A DNA stretch of 64,000 nucleotides, taken from the IMG/VR virus record IMGVR_UViG_3300025133_000040, positions 32,001 through 96,000 of that record. The stretch is one strand, 5' to 3'. This document shows positions 900 through 54,600 of this stretch, in pieces. The position numbers and the translations under genes are program-made. The notes under the pieces are model-generated. The model saw only the letters and a list, made by a program, of their open reading frames with translations, was not told the origin of the DNA and did not search any database. The stretch is from a virus. Positions within the stretch are counted from its first letter, which is position 1, and each line of letters starts with the position of its first letter.

Positions 900-2585
900 C
901 TATAGCTGCTTAATTTTTTCCACAATAATCCCGCCACGGTCACTTTTCTTACCGCTAATCAGGATGGTGTTGTCCTCAAAGAGGTAGCCGTTGAGTTCTT
1001 CCCAGCTATCAGGGAACACAACTACGTTCTCCATGGTGCCGCTGAGGTCAGAAACCTCTAGGAACGCCATGCTAGAGCCAGGATTCTTACCGTTCTTTGT
1101 CTTAACCTGTTTAACCCTGTCGATTTGACAGGAGATAATGATAGGTGTTCGTCTGAACCCATGGTTAAACTCTCTAATATTACAGTTGGCGTTGCCAATG
1201 TCTACCCCGTCCACAGCAGATGCCGTCAGAGCCACCCCTAGGAGCCTACGTTCCTCTTGGTTAATCCACTGAGGAGTGTCCCCAAGGTCGTGAGGAGGGC
1301 TCACAACAGCCTGTAGAAAGCCTCTCACTTTGTGAAGGCGAGGTTTAGTATGGCACACAGCATCTTTTCCTGAGCCTAAAGATATGATTAATTCTAACAC
1401 ATGCTCAAGACTCTCAACCTCATGCCTCGTTCTGACTGCCGCACTACCCTCGTAGTCCTTCAGAAGAAGTAGTCGTTCCACTTTGGGCTTCTCTGTTTTG
1501 CTTACCTTGCTGTAGATAAGGTATTCATACTCCATTCTACTGCGAGATACCTTCATGTAGTCCAAGGCACCCGATTTAATCATAGCTATGACCGCCGTCT
1601 TGGTAACCCTCTGAGACAGGAAGACAAGGAACTCTACCCATGTCCACTCACCCCTTCCTTTTCCTAGCATCTTCTCAATATGGCAGGTTTTGTCTACTAC
1701 CTTATCAAATACGGAGCCACCAATTCCCTTAATGTCTACAAATCCAAAGTAAATCTTCTGATTAATTATACGGAAGTGGTCGTTTAGGTTTCGGAAGTCT
1801 GGAGCATATACGTCAACATCGTGATTACGTGCGTCATTGACTAGCTCACGAATTTCATCTTGGGGCTTTTGCTTTTCCTTGGCGTAAAACAAGTAGGAAG
1901 TGTAGAAAACCTTAGGGAAGTGAGCCTTAGCATACGCAGCTAGATAGCCGTTCACAGCATAACACACAGCGTGAGACAGGTTGAAAGAGTACCGTTGGGA
2001 CTTTTCAATCCATCCAAAAATTTGCTCAGCCTCTTCCTCTGTGACAATACCCACACTCCTACAGCCCTCCATAAACTCAAACTTGACCTTCTGCATGACC
2101 TCGACTTTTTTCTTGCCGATAGCCTTACGAAGTACGTCTGCCTGTTGAAGGTTGAATCCCGCAATATCCTTTGCTATTTGCATAGCGTTCTCTTGGTAAA
2201 TCATCTGACCAAAAGTAGAACTAAGAGCGGCCTCAAGAGCTGGATGGTAGTAGCTTATCTCTTCCTTGCCATTTTTACGGTCGATATAGTGATTGGTAAT
2301 AGACTTATCATCAATCATAGCCTCAGAACACCCAGGACGGATGATGGCAGACAATGCCGCAAGCTGTTCGATATTCTCAGGTTTAAGCTTAGAGGCGAGA
2401 GACTGACCCAGCCTACTCTCTAGTTGGAATACGCCTTTTGTTTTTCCTGATGAAATTAAATCCCATGTTCTAGTGCAGTCCAAAGGGACCACGTCTAGAC
2501 TAGGATTAAATCTTAGCTTAGGGCGACCATTAACTTCACCGCTTGTCTCAAAGCAGCAGCCGCATCCTGGGTAAGTATAGGTCAT
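900..2585 (-). CDS. dnaE: DNA polymerase III alpha subunit, C-terminal half (fingers, HhH, OB)
   Basis: GVFQLES, IIRPG, LRKAIGKK, YSFNLSHAVCY, IKGIG, MAFLEVSDLSG motifs. Confidence 0.95.
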   Translation of the reverse strand: MTYTYPGCGCCFETSGEVNGRPKLRFNPSLDVVPLDCTRTWDLISSGKTKGVFQLESRLGQSLASKLKPENIEQLAALSAIIRPGCSEAMIDDKSITNHYIDRKNGKEEISYYHPALEAALSSTFGQMIYQENAMQIAKDIAGFNLQQADVLRKAIGKKKVEVMQKVKFEFMEGCRSVGIVTEEEAEQIFGWIEKSQRYSFNLSHAVCYAVNGYLAAYAKAHFPKVFYTSYLFYAKEKQKPQDEIRELVNDARNHDVDVYAPDFRNLNDHFRIINQKIYFGFVDIKGIGGSVFDKVVDKTCHIEKMLGKGRGEWTWVEFLVFLSQRVTKTAVIAMIKSGALDYMKVSRSRMEYEYLIYSKVSKTEKPKVERLLLLKDYEGSAAVRTRHEVESLEHVLELIISLGSGKDAVCHTKPRLHKVRGFLQAVVSPPHDLGDTPQWINQEERRLLGVALTASAVDGVDIGNANCNIREFNHGFRRTPIIISCQIDRVKQVKTKNGKNPGSSMAFLEVSDLSGTMENVVVFPDSWEELNGYLFEDNTILISGKKSDRGGIIVEKIKQL

Positions 2586-3284: not shown

Positions 3285-3670
3285 TTTTTATCCTGTATTG
3301 AGTCGTAGTCAAAATCCTCTTCATCGTCTTCGTCTTCTTCAAGTGTAGGGTCTTCTACCTCTCTTGTCAAGGGGAAACCAAACAATTCTTCTACATCGTT
3401 GGTTGAATTCATCTGCTTGATAATATCTTCTGGGAATATGTCGCTGTCTACGGTCGGTTCGACACCCTTTGAGAGCGTAGTCTCAACCACGTCTATACCC
3501 TCAATCAGTTCTACCTTGGTCTTAGCTCCGAACAAGGCGTTGCCAGAGTGGCTAGTAGCATTGTACTCAGGGCAGCAACCTGCCGTCTTCCAGTAAGTCT
3601 TAACTCGTTGATATTCAATGTCATGTATTCTGAAAAATCCGTTCATTGGAACTTCTTTAAACATTAGCAT
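3281..3670 (-). CDS. hypothetical protein with acidic tail
   Basis: ORF between the dnaE halves; start trimmed to the ATG overlapping the end of dnaE-N. Confidence 0.6.
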   Translation of the reverse strand: MLMFKEVPMNGFFRIHDIEYQRVKTYWKTAGCCPEYNATSHSGNALFGAKTKVELIEGIDVVETTLSKGVEPTVDSDIFPEDIIKQMNSTNDVEELFGFPLTREVEDPTLEEDEDDEEDFDYDSIQDKK

Positions 3671-5561
3671 AGTCATAATCAGTAGTCTCTCTTTCTTTTT
3701 TGGTGTTTTGGAGAATGTCTCCAAACTCTAAAATTTCTTGTATGCCCATAATCTTGTCCAACAAGGCGATGCCTAGAATGTCTAGCTTGACCATGCCTAA
3801 GGCTTCCAGGTCATTCATTTCCATTCCGGCTACGAGCATCTTCTTTTTAGTATCATACACCATAGGGCAGTACTCTTCAAGCGGTTCTGGTGAGATAATA
3901 ACACCAGCAGCGTGCTTAGACTGGATGATTTTCGTCCCTTCCAACCGCATAGCTTGCTCAAAACGAGGCCCTAACTCGCCTGTCACGTTGCCGTTTTCAT
4001 CAATGCCGACTCCCCACTCAGCAAAATCCGCTGGTTTTTCCTCTAAGGCGAAGCGAATTAAGGAAGAATCGCCAGTTTCCTCCTTCATTTCCTGAAGTTC
4101 GCCCGCTACTTTGGCGGGGTCTGGAATTAATTTAGTGATACGATTAATGTCGTCGTTACTTAGGTCTGCATATGCCTTGAACACATCCTTTACCGCAGCA
4201 CGACCTTGCATTGTCTGGTAGGTAATCATTTGGCTAACCTTGTCGTCGCCGTACCTGTCCTTAATGTGCTGAATTACTTCCTCTCGCTTAGCAACGGGAA
4301 CGTCCATATCAATATCAGGTAGGGAGATATTATCCTCTGTATTTCTACCCTCGTTGTAGAACCTTTCAATCAGCAAACCATAAGGAATCGGGTCTACCTG
4401 TGTGATGCCAATGAGGTAAGAGATAAGACAGCCTGCGGCTGACCCACGTCCAGGTCCAGCCAACCAACCCTTATCCCTAACGAAGTTAACAATGTCTTGA
4501 CAGATTAGGAAGTACCCAGATAGGTCTGCCCCCTCAAAAATGTCAAGCTCTTTCTTAACTCGGTCGGCGTACTCTTGGTGCTTGTGTTCTGGAACCTTGC
4601 CTGCGATTAGTTTGGCCCAGCCCTCACGACATAATTGCCGTAGATACAGGTTGCTATCCATGCCGTTGGGGCAAGGAAAAGGAGGCAGGATGGGCTTCCT
4701 AGTAATTTTGAAGTCCTCAATCTTAGCATCAAGCTCCAGAGTGTTTGCCAGTTCTTCCTCAGTGTGTCCGTACTCTATCATTTCCTCGTACGAGGGGATG
4801 TGAAAGCGGTCTGAGTTGAAGAAGCAGTTAAGTTGAAACTCAGGCTTCTTGCCGTTGCGTAGGTTGGTCCCCATACCACGACACAGAAGGATGTTCTGGT
4901 CGGGTGCTTGGTCCTGAGTCGCATAGTGAGCATCGGGCGTTGCTATCACAGGGATTCCTGTTCTGCGCCCCACCTCGCGTACCATCTCAGTCACCTTACG
5001 TTGTAGTGGCTCATAGTCCGCTAAATACAACTGTGTTTCAAGGTAGAAGTTTCCCTTGCCGAACGCCTCTTGCATTTCCAGAGCTAGTCTAACACCAGCA
5101 TCCATGCCTGAGCTAATCAGCATGTTGGCTAGGCATGAGCCTAGGTGCCCACTAAAGCCTATGATGTTACCATCTAGGTATTCTTTTAACTGTTCAAACG
5201 ACAGGCGAGGGCGACGGTAGAAGTGGTCGGGGTGGTTAGATGCTGAGGTAATCTTAATCAGCTTCATCCAGCCCTTGTAGTTCTTACACAGAACAGGGAG
5301 GTGGGACATTTTAGAGTTCTCTGGTTTCTTGACAGAGGCATCTAGCTTAGAAATGTAAAGCTCGCAACCCAGAATAGGCTTCTTACCTGCGTCCCTCATA
5401 GCTTTAGAGAATTGTACCACACCGCTCACAGAACCATGGTCTGTTAGGGCACAGCTACCCGCATCAATAGCCTCAATACGTGCCGCCATCTGCTCAGGCT
5501 GAGCTAGGCCATCCAGAAGAGAGAAATGTGAGTGGCAATGGAGGGGGGTGTACTTTTTCAT
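3657..5561 (-). CDS. dnaE: DNA polymerase III alpha subunit, N-terminal half (PHP, palm, thumb)
   Basis: LHCHSHFSLLDG, LTDHG, GPGRGSAAG, PDIDMD, HAAG, KLDILG. Confidence 0.95.
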   Translation of the reverse strand: MKKYTPLHCHSHFSLLDGLAQPEQMAARIEAIDAGSCALTDHGSVSGVVQFSKAMRDAGKKPILGCELYISKLDASVKKPENSKMSHLPVLCKNYKGWMKLIKITSASNHPDHFYRRPRLSFEQLKEYLDGNIIGFSGHLGSCLANMLISSGMDAGVRLALEMQEAFGKGNFYLETQLYLADYEPLQRKVTEMVREVGRRTGIPVIATPDAHYATQDQAPDQNILLCRGMGTNLRNGKKPEFQLNCFFNSDRFHIPSYEEMIEYGHTEEELANTLELDAKIEDFKITRKPILPPFPCPNGMDSNLYLRQLCREGWAKLIAGKVPEHKHQEYADRVKKELDIFEGADLSGYFLICQDIVNFVRDKGWLAGPGRGSAAGCLISYLIGITQVDPIPYGLLIERFYNEGRNTEDNISLPDIDMDVPVAKREEVIQHIKDRYGDDKVSQMITYQTMQGRAAVKDVFKAYADLSNDDINRITKLIPDPAKVAGELQEMKEETGDSSLIRFALEEKPADFAEWGVGIDENGNVTGELGPRFEQAMRLEGTKIIQSKHAAGVIISPEPLEEYCPMVYDTKKKMLVAGMEMNDLEALGMVKLDILGIALLDKIMGIQEILEFGDILQNTKKERETTDYDYANV

Positions 5562-6217
5562 ACGTAGGTATCGCTCTTTCTAATGTTGTCGGCAGCCCAC
5601 AGGGGTTGCAGGTTTGTATAGTGAAAGCATTGCCTCTGTTGTTCGGGGTCTGTAAGGTCGAACGACGCGCATGGCCGTATGTGGTCGATGTGCCAATCGC
5701 CGTGATTGCTCCAAGACATACCTTCTGTAAATCTTTCTGCTAGGTAGTCTTTAGCGAAAGATATAGAGCATCCGACCAACGCAACTACAGACTCACTCTT
5801 GTATTCTTTTTTAATGCGCCCCGTGAAGGAGCTTCGCAGTATGGCGGTCAGTCTATATTCGGGGTCGTTTTTATACCTATCTCTCTGTAGTTTTCTTCTT
5901 CGTTTTTTATACTTGCTTGTCTGTTTGTATGCCTTGTGGGATGCGAGGTTGTCACTATACCACTTCCTGCTTTTGTCTTTTAATCTTTCTTTGTTCTCGG
6001 CGTAATATCTTCTATTCCTCTCTTTAATTTTTTCTATGTTCTTCTCTCTGTATATTTTACCTTGCTTGTGTATTTTTTTCCTGTTCTTATCCTTATATAT
6101 CTTACTAGATATGGCCACACAAGACCTACATACGTAGTAAAGCCCATCTTTATTAGCTGATTGTTTGCAAAATTCCCTAAGCTCTTTCTCAAGCTTACAC
6201 TTGGTGCAAGTTTTCAT
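5558..6217 (-). CDS. HNH homing-endonuclease-like protein
   Basis: N-terminal CxxC, basic repeats, WHIDHIRPC...HYTNLQPLWAADN. Confidence 0.85.
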   Translation of the reverse strand: MKTCTKCKLEKELREFCKQSANKDGLYYVCRSCVAISSKIYKDKNRKKIHKQGKIYREKNIEKIKERNRRYYAENKERLKDKSRKWYSDNLASHKAYKQTSKYKKRRRKLQRDRYKNDPEYRLTAILRSSFTGRIKKEYKSESVVALVGCSISFAKDYLAERFTEGMSWSNHGDWHIDHIRPCASFDLTDPEQQRQCFHYTNLQPLWAADNIRKSDTYV

Positions 6218-14767: not shown

Positions 14768-15263
14768 TCATTTCCTTATAGAGGTCTTTGTAAGCCTTCT
14801 TAAGATTACGATACAACTTAAACTTTCTAGTGGCCTCGTGCTGTATTCTCATACCCACACAATCACATTGCTTTTTGTCATACAGGTTGTGGTGACCTTC
14901 TTTCCTAAATGTTCTTAGGACAGTATCAACGGAACACCCATACTCTTCATCGTCGTCACAAACAATGATGGCGTATAACCCCATGCGTCTCTGACGGTGC
15001 ATTTGTTCGTCGTAGTGAAATCCTACGTGCTTAATCCCTGGACCGTGATAGACTTCTTCTAGCTCATCGCATTTGAGCACACACTTAAAGACAAGAGCGT
15101 CTACCATAAACTTTTCAGTTTGGGTAAGTTCCTGAGGGCCGTCATACTGAGGGTCTCTCTTTAAGGCTTTAATATCAAGAGCTATCCTTGCCATCTCTGC
15201 CTTTAGGTCTTTTGCTGATGTCCACAAGGTGTTTAACTGCGTTTCGGTTGCATAGTCGTTCAT
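14736..15263 (-). CDS. hypothetical protein
   Basis: packed ORF. Confidence 0.6.
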   Translation of the reverse strand: MNDYATETQLNTLWTSAKDLKAEMARIALDIKALKRDPQYDGPQELTQTEKFMVDALVFKCVLKCDELEEVYHGPGIKHVGFHYDEQMHRQRRMGLYAIIVCDDDEEYGCSVDTVLRTFRKEGHHNLYDKKQCDCVGMRIQHEATRKFKLYRNLKKAYKDLYKEMSENAETNGKV

Positions 15264-15823
15264 TCTTTAATCTTCTTACTTTTAATATTGTAAACATTAC
15301 CACGAGCACTACGGCAAACGTCTGGAAGAGGGCGACGATTAGCACTATCGTCACTCTTTTCAGCAGCGGCAGCAGTCATAATAGACACGCCCTTAGAACC
15401 ACCCTTGGTTTCACGAATCATGTAGCTACTAACGTCCCGGCTATTAACCGCAAAAGTGTATAGCTCACGACCATCCTTGGGTAGTTCGTACAGCTTAGGG
15501 ATAGCAGAATCAAGCAACTCCCTAGCGTCGTTAGGGGAGAAGCCGTTGCGACCCATATAGGCTATCGCTTGGTCGTACATATCCTGAGGAACCTCAATAA
15601 CCTCAGCTTCCTCCTCTAGTACTGGTTCGTCTTCTTCGATTGCTTCTGCATACTGCGCTCGCACAATAGTATCAATCAAGTCTGACAGTTCAGTGTTAAC
15701 ATACTTCTCAACTGTGGGTGAGCGTCTGCCAAGTTCTTTGGCGATTTCTGAAATAGACTTGCCATCGTGAATCATACCCTGAATAGAATATTTCTCAACT
15801 TGAGTTAGGGGGCCACTAGCCAT
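15260..15823 (-). CDS. helix-turn-helix protein
   Basis: GKSISEIAKELGRRSPTV; start at TAATG overlap (15823). Confidence 0.7.
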   Translation of the reverse strand: MASGPLTQVEKYSIQGMIHDGKSISEIAKELGRRSPTVEKYVNTELSDLIDTIVRAQYAEAIEEDEPVLEEEAEVIEVPQDMYDQAIAYMGRNGFSPNDARELLDSAIPKLYELPKDGRELYTFAVNSRDVSSYMIRETKGGSKGVSIMTAAAAEKSDDSANRRPLPDVCRSARGNVYNIKSKKIKE

Positions 15824-31535: not shown

Positions 31536-32475
31536 TTTTCATAAACAGTGAATGAGTCAAAGGCTTCGACCCCTTACGAACCTGAACACCGTCAAGCAAG
31601 CTGCCATCCGTAATGCCCGTTGATATAAAAGCACAGTCGCCCCTCACTAGGTCGTTTTCGTTTAAAATCTCTCCGCACTTAACAAACCTTGAACTACCGT
31701 CCATCATTCGCTCAACTTCTTCCATCTCAAAGCCCCCTCCAAGGCACTTAACTGCGGCAGCAGAAATAACAGCCTCAGGTGCGCCGCCGATACCACAGTA
31801 CAGGTCGATGCCAGAGTTAGGTAGACACGTAGCGATAGAGGCATTAACATCACAGTCTTGAATAAGTTTAATCCTACAGCCAATTCCCCTTAGTAGTTCA
31901 ATGCTGTGTCCGTTACGCGGCCTATCAAGCATACACACCGTAACTTCATTAACCTGCTTCTTTAGCGCGTCAGCCACCATGGTAGCTACCTCACTAATAG
32001 GAAAATCAAGCTGGTGGTACTTGTCGCCTCCGTACCTGTTGTCAATGTATTTCTTAGTGCGAGGTCCATAGCACATCTTCATTACGTAGTGAGCCTCGGT
32101 TGTGTACATCGTGTCAGGGCCAGAGAAAGCCATTACAGAACTAGCCTCAGGCCCACCTTTAGAGGTTTGAGTTGTGCCGTCTACAGGGTCTACAGCAATG
32201 TCATAGATTTTCTCCCACTGAGAGTCTTTCTTATTAACATACTTACCAACGCCTCTGTACTCGCCAACCCACTCACCGTCAAAGAGCCCAGGAGCCTCGT
32301 CCTTCTTACCCTCACCAATAACAATCTTACCACAGATAGGCATACGGTTGAGTCTGTCTCGCATTGCCTCTGTTGCCGCCCCATCTGCCCCGTTCTTATC
32401 CCCGCCACCAATGTAGGACGACGCCGCAATAGCAGCCGCTTCTGTCACCCTAATTAAATCTAACGAAAAATTCAT
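31489..32475 (-). CDS. glpX: class II fructose-1,6-bisphosphatase
   Basis: RVTEAAA, IVIGEG..DEAP, DIAVDPVDGT, LDRPR, GIGGAPE, TGITDG. Confidence 0.95.
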   Translation of the reverse strand: MNFSLDLIRVTEAAAIAASSYIGGGDKNGADGAATEAMRDRLNRMPICGKIVIGEGKKDEAPGLFDGEWVGEYRGVGKYVNKKDSQWEKIYDIAVDPVDGTTQTSKGGPEASSVMAFSGPDTMYTTEAHYVMKMCYGPRTKKYIDNRYGGDKYHQLDFPISEVATMVADALKKQVNEVTVCMLDRPRNGHSIELLRGIGCRIKLIQDCDVNASIATCLPNSGIDLYCGIGGAPEAVISAAAVKCLGGGFEMEEVERMMDGSSRFVKCGEILNENDLVRGDCAFISTGITDGSLLDGVQVRKGSKPLTHSLFMKSASGTYREIRTTHGN

Positions 32476-33477: not shown

Positions 33478-34059
33478 TTAATAACCAAAGACTTCAAAGT
33501 CTTTAGCCCATGTGGTTTTGATATACTCTTTAACTTCTGGTGTTAATAGCTGGTCGTAGTCTGGACTTGGATTCACATTGTATTGAGGCAGCGAGAAGGT
33601 AATGCCCAACTCGTCCCCTATGGCTGTGAGGTCTTGCTCTAGACTCTCAAATCTAACCCATCTAGTTATGAGGTCTCGTCCTCCATACCTTAGATAGGTG
33701 TGCTGGAAGCCCGCTTGGTTGCCTCTAAACTTAAGGAAGGCTAGGAAGTCTATGTTGGTTGCTATGTTGTGCCAGGGGTGACTTTCGTTTCGCTGACAGT
33801 AGCGATAGAACGAGGCTAGCCTAGTGTAGGGGTTTCTGACAGAGGCGAAGACAATACCAAGACTGCTAAAGTAGTCCCACCCATTCTTAGCTACGAAGTG
33901 CTGAGGGTGATAGTGGTCTAGATTGGAGCCTTGAAAATACAGAATATTATGATGCGGCTCTAGGGCTTTTTTAATGCTGGAGCCACCAGTTTTTTCCATG
34001 TGAAAGAACGCTGCTACGTACTTGTTCTTACGGTAGTAATCTCTTTTAGTAGCTTTCAT
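33478..34059 (-). CDS. sulfotransferase family protein
   Basis: FHMEKTGGSS, VRNPYTRLASFY, RFESLEQD, KDFEVFGY. Confidence 0.85.
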   Translation of the reverse strand: MKATKRDYYRKNKYVAAFFHMEKTGGSSIKKALEPHHNILYFQGSNLDHYHPQHFVAKNGWDYFSSLGIVFASVRNPYTRLASFYRYCQRNESHPWHNIATNIDFLAFLKFRGNQAGFQHTYLRYGGRDLITRWVRFESLEQDLTAIGDELGITFSLPQYNVNPSPDYDQLLTPEVKEYIKTTWAKDFEVFGY

Positions 34060-34068
34060 ACTATCCAT

Positions 34069-34097
34069 CAAAAAAAGTGGACCCCCGAAGGGGTCCA
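34069..34097 (-). terminator. intrinsic terminator ending the tRNA/ncRNA transcript
   Basis: TGGACCCC TTCG GGGGTCCA followed by T-run. Confidence 0.8.
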
Positions 34098-34109
34098 TAA
34101 AATTTCCCA

Positions 34110-34272
34110 AGCCACCCTTTGAGTAGAACGTATCCCCCAAAGTCACCGTACACAGTACAACTATTACCACCTACCGGCGAAAGTAAGGGTCGAGGGTTCG
34201 CCCTGTTATAAGACCACGCTGATAGAACCCGCAGGTAGCTAGGCGTGCTTAGTACAGACCCTCACATAGTTG
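34110..34272 (-). ncRNA. candidate pseudoknotted ncRNA
   Basis: CAACTAT/ATAGTTG, GTGAGGGTC/GACCCTTAC, GCTACCTGC/GTAGGTGGT, GGCGAA/TTCGCC. Confidence 0.4.
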
Positions 34273-34865: not shown

Positions 34866-34935
34866 TACCAACGGAAGGAATTGAACCTTTCTCACAACGC
34901 CTTATGAAAGCGTGCTCCCGCCTCGGGTCGCTGGT
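34866..34935 (-). tRNA. tRNA-Met/Ile2(CAU)
   Basis: loop TTCATAA; short D-arm. Confidence 0.75.
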
Positions 34936-34939
34936 AAAG

Positions 34940-35021
34940 CAGCGGGTGAGGGAATCGAACTCTCGCGCCCTTACGACGACTGTTTTCAAGACAGTTTAGC
35001 ACGCCAACTGCAATACCCGCT
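34940..35021 (-). tRNA. tRNA-Ser(UGA)
   Basis: loop CTTGAAA; long variable arm; G73. Confidence 0.85.
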
Positions 35022-35025
35022 GTAG

Positions 35026-35097
35026 CTGGCCCCGAAGGATTTGCACCTTCGCGAAGACATTCAGAGTGTCTCATGCTACTGTTACATCAGGGACCAG
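35026..35097 (-). tRNA. tRNA-Gln(CUG)
   Basis: loop CTCTGAA; variant T-loop TGCAAAT. Confidence 0.8.
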
Positions 35098-35100
35098 TAA

Positions 35101-35684
35101 AAAAGAGAGCTTTAGCAGTTTATTCTCTCAGCTTGTGAGGTCAACCTGTTGGTTGACCACTACACGACCTATAACAGCCTTCGCAAGCTTCACCCCTGTC
35201 GTTGCAGCTTTAGACCGCACGCAACAGCACGTTAAATTAGTGGTAGTTGTTCTGGACTTGGTGATTGGTGGTTGCAGCCACCGAACCCCTCATTCGTAAA
35301 TCTTCAAAGCCTGGGAAGCCAATCCGATTTACCCCTTGCGGGCAGCGTCACCAACTTTCGCCGGTAACCGTAGGCACTTCCACCTACCACTATGGTATTT
35401 TATTTCCCAGATTCATATTAGCGATGAACCGATGACGTACATCAGGAAAACACCCAAAAACTATCGTTCCTTCAAGCAGACACTTGGGATGGCACCCACG
35501 CTCTTGCTGTTCAGCTACTAGGTGATTTCTGTAATGCCACTTACATACTCCACCACGCACCACGACACTGTTAGGGCGATGGTAAGCCCCTCCAACGTAC
35601 ACGCTTTCGTCTATGCTGCAAGCAGCTTGGTCACCCGTCATACCGAAAGGGTAAACCAGTTTAAAGTCCCGACGACAGTGGGAC
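35101..35684 (-). ncRNA. large structured RNA, ROOL-like (~580 nt)
   Basis: ~580-nt stretch between tRNAs with no credible ORF, dense hairpins (GGTTACCGGCGAAAGTTGGTGAC, GGTCAACC/GGTTGACC, TAGTGGTAG/CTACCACTA); size, context and remembered motifs fit ROOL. Confidence 0.55.
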
Positions 35685-35686
35685 AG

Positions 35687-35755
35687 AGCCTACATCCGGT
35701 GTCGAACCGGATAGTCGTCTTTACAAGAGACAACGCTGGAGCCGCCAGTGTAGGC
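35687..35755 (-). tRNA. tRNA-Thr(UGU), shortened D-arm
   Basis: loop CTTGTAA; ~69 nt. Confidence 0.75.
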
Positions 35756-35949
35756 TAATTTCGTTCTTCTTCTGGTCGCCAGTGCTCCCAGTTTATTTCA
35801 GTCCAACAATCGCTGTAGTCTTCCGTACAGCGTTCTTCCTCCGTATACTCGTTGTGACAATTAGGACACTCGCCACCGTTCCAGTCTTGTATTATTCCAA
35901 CCTCGTGCCCGCACCTTGGACAGTCTAGTTCATAATCAAATTCTTCCAT
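35755..35949 (-). CDS. small zinc-ribbon protein
   Basis: CPRC...CPNC. Confidence 0.6.
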   Translation of the reverse strand: MEEFDYELDCPRCGHEVGIIQDWNGGECPNCHNEYTEEERCTEDYSDCWTEINWEHWRPEEERN

Positions 35950-36218: not shown

Positions 36219-36350
36219 GCCCACTGTCGTGGGCTCTATCCACCACCGTGAATAGATAAAACCATTGATGCGTTGAGTCTGTCATACTGCGCATCTTTAT
36301 ACGACTCAACCCACATAAGTGACAGCTTACGGGTCTGGTTGTCGTGGTTT
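36219..36350 (-). ncRNA. candidate multiply pseudoknotted small RNA
   Basis: strand TGACAG-ACTCAAC-GCATC complements upstream CTGTCA, GTTGAGT, GATGC in crossing order; closed by AAACCA/TGGTTT. Confidence 0.45.
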
Positions 36351-36467: not shown

Positions 36468-36495
36468 AGTATACACCTAAACCGCCTCAAGTCAA
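36468..36495 (-). promoter_or_regulatory. conserved promoter driving the 34-36 kb tRNA/ncRNA operon
   Basis: TTGACT-N16-TATACT. Confidence 0.8.
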
Positions 36496-36666: not shown

Positions 36667-37293
36667 TTAGTGATACGAAGTCCCTTTGTCGTGGTGGTCT
36701 ACACTTTCAGGCTCTATGTGCCTCATGTACTCCACAATGTCATCCAGTAGCATTGGGGTGTACCTTTCAGAGTTAGGACCATGACAGTCCATGCCCACGT
36801 CCATCTGCCTGCCACAATCCCTAGTGTAGGTGCCATGACAGTGACCATATAGGTTGATAGACCCTCGACCTACCTCGTTCCACGACCCCAGAGGATAGTG
36901 ACCCATGGTAATCAGCTTCTTACCGTGTCTAAACTCTCGGTATCGTCTGATGGTGGAGAAATGCTTGGTGTGCGCCTCTCCCTTGAACTTACGATTCTCT
37001 GGGTCTAGAGTGTCGTCGTGGTTACCTAGTAACAGGTGAATCGTACGGCACTTGATTCGCGCACGCATCCCAGGAATGTCCCTCGGACCCATGGCGAAGT
37101 CGCCCAGGTGAATCAGGGTATCGCCCTCACCAACAACGCTGTTGATGTTGTCGATAATGGTGCTATCCATCTCGTCCACAGAAGCGAAGTCTCGGTAGCC
37201 CTTATCCCAGGAGGACAAAGCAGGCCCGCTGATATTTACATGGCCGAAGTGAGTATCGGCGGTTACAAAGATTTTATTCATTCTATTCTCCAT
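36667..37293 (-). CDS. calcineurin-like metallophosphoesterase
   Basis: DTHFGH, LGD, GNHD, HYP, GHCH. Confidence 0.92.
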   Translation of the reverse strand: MENRMNKIFVTADTHFGHVNISGPALSSWDKGYRDFASVDEMDSTIIDNINSVVGEGDTLIHLGDFAMGPRDIPGMRARIKCRTIHLLLGNHDDTLDPENRKFKGEAHTKHFSTIRRYREFRHGKKLITMGHYPLGSWNEVGRGSINLYGHCHGTYTRDCGRQMDVGMDCHGPNSERYTPMLLDDIVEYMRHIEPESVDHHDKGTSYH

Positions 37294-38323
37294 GCTTTAA
37301 AGCATACTTGTTGCTGATGACCTTGAAAGACAGGGGCTTTCCCAATACCTCGTTCCAGCCACCGCCATTAGCTAGGCGAACCACGATTCCTTCAGCGCGA
37401 CTGCCGTTAGCGTACTTGGTTTCGTCAGCTAGTTCTAGCAGGCCCTCTAGTGTCCAAGTAGGACACTCCTCGTCTGCTGGGCCTAGGTAGCACAGGTCTA
37501 CCATGGTAAGCTCATATTCCTCACAGAACTTTTTGGTCTGACGGTAGTTCAGAGTGTAGTCCTCTTCAATATCGAACACGTTGAATACCCTGAACTCAGG
37601 CTCTTTCAAGCCCTCTCGGTTGTTCTGAATACCAGGACCAACAATCTCACCCTGTACGACGCAGTTGTCGGGCAGAGCGGCAAGTGAATACTTTAAAGCC
37701 ATCCTACCGTAGACACCACCGTCAATCTTTAGCTCCATATTGCGTGAGCAAATACGAAAATGATTGTCTTCCATAATATAGGTAGCAGATGTACCGTCAT
37801 GCTTAACAGAGATATAGACTTCCTTACCCTGAATCTTTTCAATGAGAGAAGGTAGGTTCTGAATCCTTTCCTCGTCTGTCTTTGAGACCAAGTGAGTAGG
37901 GAAGTGACCAATAGCATCTGCTGACTGAGGTGCGGGCTTCTCGTACTTGAGCACTTCCAGTGCCTCGGTTACGTCGTCGCCTTCTGTTACTAGAGGTCGC
38001 ACAGGAACAGTCCAAGTTACTCCCTCGTCCTCAACTTCTTCTAATCTATCTAGAACAGATAACGGAAAACAAATTCCCTGTGAAACTACACCACGTAGCT
38101 TGATTGTCTTGACTCTGAACTGCTTGTTCCGAAGGAACTCAAACTCTGGTCGCTCTGGAAGGATAGAATCCAACGCCACGTAGACGCAGAGGTCACCCTC
38201 TTTGAACTCGCCCTTCTTGGCGACCACGGTCCAGCCTAGTACCTTGATTAGCTCTAGGCTATCAGCATTGTCATGTGGCAGTACAGAGGCCACCCTTTGA
38301 ATTGTTGCTAGTTTGTTACTCAT
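37283..38323 (-). CDS. RNA ligase, DRB0094/Rnl5 family
   Basis: N-terminal OB (HDNADSLE), KTDEERIQN, KHDGTS, QGE, EGIV, SFKVIS. Confidence 0.92.
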   Translation of the reverse strand: MSNKLATIQRVASVLPHDNADSLELIKVLGWTVVAKKGEFKEGDLCVYVALDSILPERPEFEFLRNKQFRVKTIKLRGVVSQGICFPLSVLDRLEEVEDEGVTWTVPVRPLVTEGDDVTEALEVLKYEKPAPQSADAIGHFPTHLVSKTDEERIQNLPSLIEKIQGKEVYISVKHDGTSATYIMEDNHFRICSRNMELKIDGGVYGRMALKYSLAALPDNCVVQGEIVGPGIQNNREGLKEPEFRVFNVFDIEEDYTLNYRQTKKFCEEYELTMVDLCYLGPADEECPTWTLEGLLELADETKYANGSRAEGIVVRLANGGGWNEVLGKPLSFKVISNKYALKHGE

Positions 38324-53767: not shown

Positions 53768-53919
53768 GGGTCAATGAGACTATAATCACCATGAGTAATC
53801 TTTTGTTGTCGTACTCACAACGTCCGTTGGACGATTTACGCCTCCGAAGAGAACTCCTGCCAGGGAGTCGATTAACAACGTGTCCACCTACCAAGTAGGT
53901 AATCACTCGCGACTGCAAT
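53768..53919 (-). ncRNA. candidate multi-stem ncRNA
   Basis: GAGTGATT/GATTACTC enclosing ACCTAC/GTAGGT, ACTCC/GGAGT, a TTCG hairpin and CGTCC/GGACG. Confidence 0.4.
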
Positions 53920-53924
53920 ATTTA

Positions 53925-54600
53925 AGAGCCTGCGTTAGCTCTATCTAAACAACTACTCAACCGCATCCATTAACTCTGCCTTGCGAGCAGTTCAACTCCG
54001 CTAGGAGTTTAGTCGCTTTCCTCGATTAACTTGATTGACCTTGCGAGTCGCCCAAGTCAGTATTACCCCGAAGGGCTACCGAATTAAGTCGCTTTCGTTG
54101 TCTAGTGTGTCAGGACTTTTGCTTTGGTTAAAAATACAGGAATCGAACCCATACAGATTGTTTGATACAACAATTGCCCTACCGTTAGGCTAATTTTCAT
54201 TTGGCGAGAGACGTGCTGACACAGTTGCTCCATATCCTTTTGGGATGCAGAATACAACACGCCTCTCTGTACAGAGTCTTGCGGACTCTTATACCGTAGT
54301 TCAAGAGAAGGTGTGCCCCCTCTCTCTCATACTACCACATCCCACTTGTTTGCAGCTTGCAGAATGTAGTTACTGTTCCTTCCTCAGAAGTAAACTGTTA
54401 AATCCCTATCCCAGGCTATCACCTCTGGGAAGTAGTCGATAGTGTTACCCTCGTGCTACTTTCAGGCAGTCGTTCTTCCTATTGCCCATTACAGGACAAC
54501 AAGGAAAGGTCAGCTTGAATGAATGGACTCTTACGAGCGACAGCTTGCCACGCTGCCTTTGGGGAGATTGCTCTCCTTACCCTAATGACTTCATACAGCC
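53925..54600 (-). ncRNA. GOLLD-like large RNA with embedded tRNA-like element
   Basis: GTGTTGTATTCTGCATCCCAAAAGGATATGGAGCAAC..GCACG domain, GCAAAAGT, repeated GAAAGCGACT and CTCGCAAGG; lies inside the tRNA array; family from remembered consensus. Confidence 0.6.
54125..54199 (-). other. tRNA-like element with 8-nt aberrant anticodon loop and encoded CCA
   Basis: normal acceptor/D/T arms; loop TGTATCAA. Confidence 0.65.

Follow-up and report, generated by a model that had tools for sequence, protein, structure and literature searches.

Locus and tRNA operon

The window (the whole stretch of DNA that was analysed, 64,000 nt) covers positions 32,001 to 96,000 of the IMG/VR virus record IMGVR_UViG_3300025133_000040, whose full length is 111,831 bp. 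The phage context is given by genes for a split DnaE-like polymerase, a primase, a helicase, a ribonucleotide reductase and an Rnl1-type ligase. The two polymerase ORFs correspond to consecutive parts of one PHROG profile; the stretch of about 1 kb between them may be an intervening element. The polymerases of phage isolates reach 34% identity to it at the most. For glpX, no close relative was found in the genome contig collection. In the window, ARAGORN assigns 30 tRNA genes to the minus strand. The coordinates of all features are given in Table 1.

The local tRNA block is flanked by a promoter-like site and a terminator-like hairpin (consensus scan only). Another promoter-like site, inside the RNA described below (35144-35117), was rejected: it is not kept in homologs. 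The positions of tRNA-Thr and tRNA-Gln delimit a spacer of 589 nt (35097-35685, minus strand), called the RNA below. This agrees with the preliminary description, which had placed a unit of about 580 nt between the same two tRNA genes (35101-35684) and had seen no credible ORF in it. The ORFs that overlap the RNA are just 31-83 aa long. The longest stop-free stretch of the window copy in the sense of the RNA is 97 aa; it is missing from the homologs that are 77% identical, whose longest frames lie on the opposite strand and in other places. The indels that separate the two clades of copies are of 1, 2, 3 and 6 nt and break the frame. No open frame common to the copies was found when the window was compared with its homologs.

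Homologs and conservation

Related contigs were fetched via the neighbouring metallophosphoesterase gene, and the RNA was then located in them by nhmmer and blastn. Full-length homologs were found in 4 further contigs (3 further distinct sequences). They span positions 1-588 of the RNA: L096:5020-5608, 97% identical to the window copy; L016:12247-12823 (an identical copy is found in L026) and L017:12162-12738, both at 77%. The comparative set is made of 4 distinct sequences in 2 clades, essentially a single deep evolutionary contrast.

Across 12 kb, only the tRNAs (72-85%), the phosphoesterase gene (64% in nucleotides, 52% in amino acids) and the RNA (77%) are alignable between the clades. The RNA is conserved over its entire length at roughly the level of the tRNAs; adjacent genes have diverged or are lost. 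L096 lacks tRNA-Gln, tRNA-Ser(tga), the 346-aa RNA ligase, a 64-aa zinc-ribbon ORF and the tRNA-Thr(tgt) of the window, and retains the RNA at 97% despite these losses. These losses, together with the retention of the RNA in both clades, indicate that it acts as an independent, selected module. Conservation within the RNA is uneven. A stretch of about 115 nt (columns 204-320) is near-invariant, and one 20-nt hairpin (columns 528-547, 35139-35158) contains 16 of the 24 changes that distinguish L096 from the window. This hypervariable hairpin is re-written between copies and is still a hairpin in every copy.

On the upstream side, the conservation sets in with the first base past a tRNA or tRNA-like unit: tRNA-Thr(UGU) for the window copy, a degenerate unit resembling Thr(UGU) for L096 and, for L016/L017, a tRNA-like unit of about 113 nt. 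On the downstream side, it runs to the last base before the next tRNA, which for the window copy is Gln and for L016/L017 Met(CAU). A tRNA or tRNA-like unit thus adjoins both ends in all copies (RNA length, 577-589 nt). In L096, the Thr(UGU)-like unit (4950-5019) and a downstream tRNA-like stretch (5609-5680) are both left uncalled by ARAGORN. The unit directly upstream of the RNA in the other clade (L016:12132-12246, L017:12053-12161) resembles a tRNA in its T-arm and acceptor end. It is not called by ARAGORN, and its Rfam match to tRNA-Sec is weak (15.5 bits); perhaps it is a tRNA that has degenerated or carries an insert. As read from these sequences, the tRNAs turn over around a fixed RNA, those that flank it in L096 being replaced.

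The RNA lies about 1 kb from the metallophosphoesterase gene, which is kept in both clades, and Rnl-type ligases adjoin. Besides the phosphoesterase, only a 50-aa ORF (27%, E = 0.005) and a sulfotransferase-like gene (28%) are found near the RNA in both clades.

The 346-aa RNA ligase (PHA02142 OB-fold and RNA_ligase) is missing from L096, which is otherwise 95-97% identical; most of the sulfotransferase-like gene is also missing from this contig. A small element located after tRNA-Val, in the window and in L096, carries a hairpin whose sequence complements the loop of the 5' hairpin of the RNA (35672-35682). A conserved two-piece interaction between them is not supported: L016/L017 show neither conservation of the element sequence nor the complementarity.

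Table 1. Features of the RNA, its operon and the neighbouring region (window positions a)
Feature	Position	Strand	Description b	Source
Whole structured RNA	35097..35685	-	589 nt; full-length conservation in L096, L016/L026 and L017	
5' hairpin H1	35666..35684	-	Cols 2-20; 5 bp, 9-nt loop; one loop base varies, rest invariant	
Hairpin H3	35627..35659	-	Cols 27-59; 5' strand (cols 27-43) alternatively in 17-bp helix	
H4, single strand AUAGA(C/U)GAAAG, H5 enclosing H6	35555..35626	-	Single strand conserved	
Two-tier hairpin H7/H8	35521..35554	-	Invariant loop GUGGCA (35535-35540); 6/9 pairs double-changed	
Hairpin H9/H10	35475..35508	-	Invariant loop UGCCAU (35489-35494)	
GAUA-loop hairpin H11 and three-way junction H12-H15	35394..35471	-	Most conserved block, ~98% between clades	
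Large multi-junction domain	35238..35392	-	H16 closes H17 and H22; 10 pairs double-changed; H17 contains H18 (GAAA loop), H19 (GCAA/GAAA loop) and H20-H21; followed by a 17-nt single strand	
Long irregular hairpin H23	35192..35232	-	Cols 454-494; tip variable	
3' three-way domain H24-H26	35130..35189	-	Includes the hypervariable hairpin	
Terminal hairpin H28	35097..35129	-	6 bp, conserved 13-nt loop AUAAACUGCUAAA; then U6-9 tract up to the next tRNA	
tRNA-Thr(UGU)	35686..35755	-	Abuts the 5' end of the RNA; without encoded CCA	ARAGORN
tRNA-Gln(CUG)	35025..35096	-	Starts one base past the 3' end of the RNA; RNase P cut here would set this end	ARAGORN
Promoter-like site TTGACT-16-TATACT	36468..36495	-	Upstream of tRNA-Val; likely polycistron start	Consensus scan only
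Strong terminator-like hairpin and T-run	34078..34097	-	Likely polycistron end	Consensus scan only
Element after tRNA-Val	36219..36350	-		
Sulfotransferase-like gene	33478..34170			
Metallophosphoesterase gene	36667..37293			
346-aa RNA ligase gene	37283..38323	-		
DnaE-like polymerase ORFs	900..2585, 3657..5561	-		
GOLLD	53774..54267	-	171 bits, full model	Rfam RF02032
tRNA-like unit in GOLLD	54125..54199		'tRNA-???' (ARAGORN); Rfam tRNA model, 48.9 bits	ARAGORN, Rfam
a An alignment column c lies at window position 35686-c. b Cols, alignment columns.

Consensus fold

The consensus fold of the four sequences (RNAalifold) has 160 pairs in 28 helices, and 31 pairs carry compensatory double changes. 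Only two clades are known and the fold is therefore provisional. The structure was derived from the sequences that were also used for covariation scoring. Of all cells, 98.9% are paired, vs 38-48% in controls with the 3' partners shifted by 1-3 columns; the pairs altered on both sides are 31, vs 1-9 in these controls. The observed covariation score was reached by 0 of 500 shuffles. Ten helices of at least 9 bp can be formed by each of the four sequences, vs about one after column shuffling. Single sequences fold only modestly better than their shuffles (z = -2.47 and -2.32), and the strong evidence is that from the comparison of copies. The dense pairing claimed in the preliminary description is thus borne out by the consensus pairs, at single-sequence z values of only -2.3 to -2.5, and the de novo covariation search that it proposed gave a positive result across the two clades.

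The helices H6 (5/5 pairs changed on both sides) and H8 are wholly re-written between the clades and are still paired around conserved loops. The loop of H6 could form a candidate pseudoknot with columns 123-127, in which the pair 103:127 changes from A-U to U-A. The fold has about five junctions, this candidate pseudoknot and one candidate loop-loop pairing (topology from two clades only). The ends are closed by a 4-bp A/U helix only, and the domains of the two-clade consensus are mostly local and serial. GAAA, GCAA/GAAA and GAUA loops are present. The GUGGCA and UGCCAU loops are complementary and are a candidate 6-bp loop-loop contact, proposed from their sequences; both are invariant, so this pairing is without covariation support. 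It could form within a single molecule. The loop of H28 exceeds the size limit of the terminator scan.

Several alignment columns fit two alternative partners. Columns 27-43 have two conserved, mutually exclusive ones: the local hairpin H3 and a 17-bp helix with columns 345-362 (35643-35659 with 35324-35341, minus strand), which competes with two locally supported hairpins. Covariation at 29:57 favours H3; covariation at 29:360 favours the long-range helix. Forced folds of the two differ by -2.5 to +9 kcal/mol and are near-isoenergetic in all four sequences. This bistable region may, according to the folding model, be a conformational switch.

Comparison with ROOL, GOLLD and other RNA families

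ROOL and GOLLD RNAs are found near phage tRNA islands and form RNA-only cages (PMC5737381; 10.1101/2024.12.08.627333). In the ROOL cage, a loop pairing first taken as intramolecular joins protomers (PMC5737381; 10.1101/2024.12.08.627333).

The ROOL model RF03087 (gathering score, 99.1 bits) has no match at E <= 10 in the window region 34900-35900 or in L016:12132-12823. No candidate was found with it in the whole virus record, and 50 related phage records, among them those bearing the RNA, were without a match at E <= 1. The ROOL of L. salivarius pMP118, used as a positive control, scores 130.4 bits, which indicates that the search works. E-values in the scans of both clades' copies were scaled by 4227 families, so that weak local similarity to ROOL would go unlisted. 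For the reciprocal search, three covariance models were built from the RNA: R1, columns 178-292; R2, columns 293-449; R3, columns 60-177 (together, columns 60-449). R1 scores 132 bits on the window block 35394-35471 and 133-134 bits in homologs; R2 scores 188.5 bits. With filters off, nothing significant was found by R1-R3 in the pMP118 ROOL, a single representative (best score, 4.7 bits, wrong strand). A profile search with nhmmer --max gave no match to the same ROOL. Of the two options given in the preliminary description, a large RNA of a new class is supported by the conservation, the tRNA flanks and the heavy structure of the RNA; the other, a ROOL that had diverged, is not upheld by RF03087 or by the reciprocal models.

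The motifs that the preliminary description likened to ROOL do occur in the ROOL consensus, as words of 5-7 nt, but partly out of order and some in another structural context. The short words found in the ROOL consensus are the GUGGcA loop with its UgCCA partner, AGUAGC, ugggCUUuga and GAAUA. GUAAAUC and AGGCU are covarying stem strands in the phage RNA; the ROOL consensus has UAAuCAAUC in a hairpin loop and CUUuga in an internal loop. A blastn search of phages with the pMP118 ROOL found no further ROOL examples.

The phage RNA resembles ROOL in its length (about 580 nt), its presence in phages or prophages beside tRNA genes, its many predicted helices and several multi-helix junctions, its candidate loop pairings of pseudoknot type, its variable segment and the absence of an evident protein partner. 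In ROOL, a long helix joins the two ends of the molecule, long-range helices are nested within one another, and there are six multi-stem junctions and three pseudoknots; the phage RNA is predicted, from two clades, to be made mostly of serial domains, without a long AU-rich closing helix or deeply nested long-range helices. The sources also differ: Firmicutes and rumen samples for ROOL, uncultured phages for the RNA. No covariance-model or profile similarity was found in either direction (one ROOL in the reciprocal direction).

A GOLLD RNA is located elsewhere in the window (RF02032), which confirms the GOLLD-like RNA that the preliminary description mentions for this genome; it holds a tRNA-like unit. 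This is the sole GOLLD match of the window: the GOLLD model has no match at E <= 10 at 35097-35685. R1 and R2 have no match in the window GOLLD. The RNA is like GOLLD in being a large, ornate RNA of phage tRNA arrays, with one of each in the same genome; it differs in being shorter, without an embedded tRNA and without a GOLLD match at its locus. GOLLD was not found in the three virus records that carry the 77% homologs, which are fragmentary (13-79% complete). On present data, the RNA and GOLLD are not obligatorily linked.

Among all Rfam 15 families (4227 models), only noise was found in the RNA: DAOA-AS1_2 (14 bits) and isrN (13 bits). No tRNA or tRNA-like module was found inside it by ARAGORN or the Rfam tRNA model. 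Highly expressed ncRNAs that adjoin tRNA genes in Kayvirus phage K and its relatives have been likened to GOLLD/ROOL (PMC10383478). The RNA is similar to these in being an unclassified long phage RNA adjoining tRNA genes. RF03087 has no match in phage K.

Wider searches

No sequence resembling the RNA was found by blastn in 50,697 phage records. IMG/VR was scanned with five patterns (two exact 16-mers, a loop-pair pattern, a structure-aware loop/junction pattern and a pattern with 20 specified bases); only the three known contigs and chance or coding matches were found. No copy was found in one scan of the genome contig collection or in the loci fetched via the neighbouring RNA ligase; a protein-anchored metagenome scan and an nhmmer search of the full set of 300 loci gave none beyond those already known. 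Among 50 related phage records searched whole, R1 matches only G013, G014 and G023; two matches of 18 bits in G026 were rejected as terminator hairpins.

Other tRNA-flanked, ORF-poor gaps (L038, L049, L037, L031) were also rejected: Rfam finds only tRNAs and a tmRNA in them, and R2 finds nothing. Two of these gaps, of about 700 nt each, lie in a 219-kb phage (L038:14157-14890 and 14963-15630) and have no Rfam match. The former folds well (z = -5.6) and has an RBS, small ORFs and a terminator; it therefore probably corresponds to small genes. In L021, the syntenic slot between tRNA-Thr and tRNA-Met contains an open frame of 288 aa instead of the RNA.

Proposed nature and role of the RNA

The RNA is very probably a functional structured RNA. 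Since every match expected of a ROOL member failed, it probably belongs to a new family among the large RNAs of phage tRNA islands. The reading retained, with a probability of about 0.7, is that of a new and rare family of large (577-589 nt) structured ncRNAs located in a tRNA operon of uncultured phages and known from two clades. It is ROOL/GOLLD-like in its size, complexity, niche and variable module, and a demonstrable member of neither family.

During tRNA maturation, RNase P cuts the 5' side of the tRNA and 3'-end processing trims its 3' side. The RNA would be co-transcribed with the tRNAs of the operon and, judging from its exact fit between them, is likely to be released by their processing: its 3' end would result from RNase P cutting of the downstream tRNA and its 5' end from 3' maturation of the upstream tRNA. 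A stand-alone RNA would then accumulate, with about five multi-helix domains that would be joined by GNRA-type tetraloops, the pseudoknot and the GUGGCA/UGCCAU loop pairing. By analogy with ROOL and GOLLD, its most likely role would be that of an RNA-only architectural particle acting during the takeover of tRNA and translation by the phage, possibly with self-association.

To our knowledge, ROOL and GOLLD are the only natural RNAs that form protein-free closed cages. By the same analogy, a homo-oligomer is a tentative proposal, with the odds rather against it. The joining of protomers by a loop pairing in ROOL makes GUGGCA/UGCCAU the obvious candidate for a similar contact, by analogy only. 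A still more speculative proposal is that phage tRNA islands hold a third family of self-assembling particles made of RNA only, independent of ROOL and GOLLD and represented by this RNA, in which GUGGCA/UGCCAU and perhaps the 17-bp pairing would be protomer contacts and the hypervariable hairpin would face the surface or a cargo.

Alternative explanations

The RNA could be a true ROOL so divergent that its domains are rearranged past detection by the Rfam model. ROOL has a mean length of 581 nt and lies in phage tRNA islands, the same setting. The two also have in common AUAGACG followed by a hairpin, a two-tier hairpin that bears a GUGGcA loop, its UgCCA partner further downstream, AGUAGC, and UUGAAG followed by a GNRA-type hairpin, and the E-value scaling mentioned above could hide weak local similarity. 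However, RF03087 is silent on both clades, in the virus record and in the related records, at a sensitivity that gives 130 bits for the control; R1-R3 and nhmmer --max are blank on the pMP118 ROOL; part of the shared words, such as GUAAAUC and AGGCU, stand in other contexts, and the predicted topology is mostly of serial domains. This origin is thus held to be unlikely. The RNA could also be part of a protein system or a decoy for one, i.e. a scaffold for the adjacent RNA-repair enzymes (phosphoesterase, kinase, ligases) or a sponge for host defence nucleases that target tRNAs, instead of an assembly of RNA alone. Its conserved proximity to the metallophosphoesterase gene and the adjoining ligases agree with this, as do a fast-evolving hairpin within a nearly frozen RNA and two near-isoenergetic pairings suggestive of a switch. 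Yet L096 keeps the RNA without the 346-aa ligase and most of the sulfotransferase-like gene, little else than the phosphoesterase recurs beside it (the 50-aa ORF and the sulfotransferase-like gene), and the RNA shows no internal tRNA-like module. Such a role is equally improbable.

Less probable than either is a part of the tRNA precursor that acts in cis, for example on the order of processing, on stability or on partial termination, and is broken down once the tRNAs have been processed. The RNA does lie inside the operon, with a hairpin and U-tract just before the next tRNA, but this hairpin has a weak stem and a loop of 13 nt, the flanking tRNAs vary between copies while the RNA is constant, and a length of 589 nt, 28 helices and some 115 nt of near-invariant sequence are far more than any known function of a spacer needs. 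The chance that the sequence is not a functional RNA (but neutral spacer, or the decayed remains of tRNA genes or of a protein gene) is negligible: the single-sequence z of only about -2.4 would suit it, whereas 77% full-length identity amid unalignable non-tRNA flanks, 31 double-compensated pairs, and the absence of both an internal tRNA model match and a common frame speak against it. The new family of structured ncRNAs is the reading that is kept.

Significance

As a member of such a family, the RNA would be a third, unrelated large RNA in the niche of the phage tRNA operon, in the same genome as a GOLLD. This would point to a general need of phages that is met by different RNAs. The RNA is small enough for transcription and cryo-EM, and its complementary loops, bistable helix and hypervariable hairpin can each be mutated. 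It would thereby serve as a comparator for the question of what ROOL and GOLLD do.
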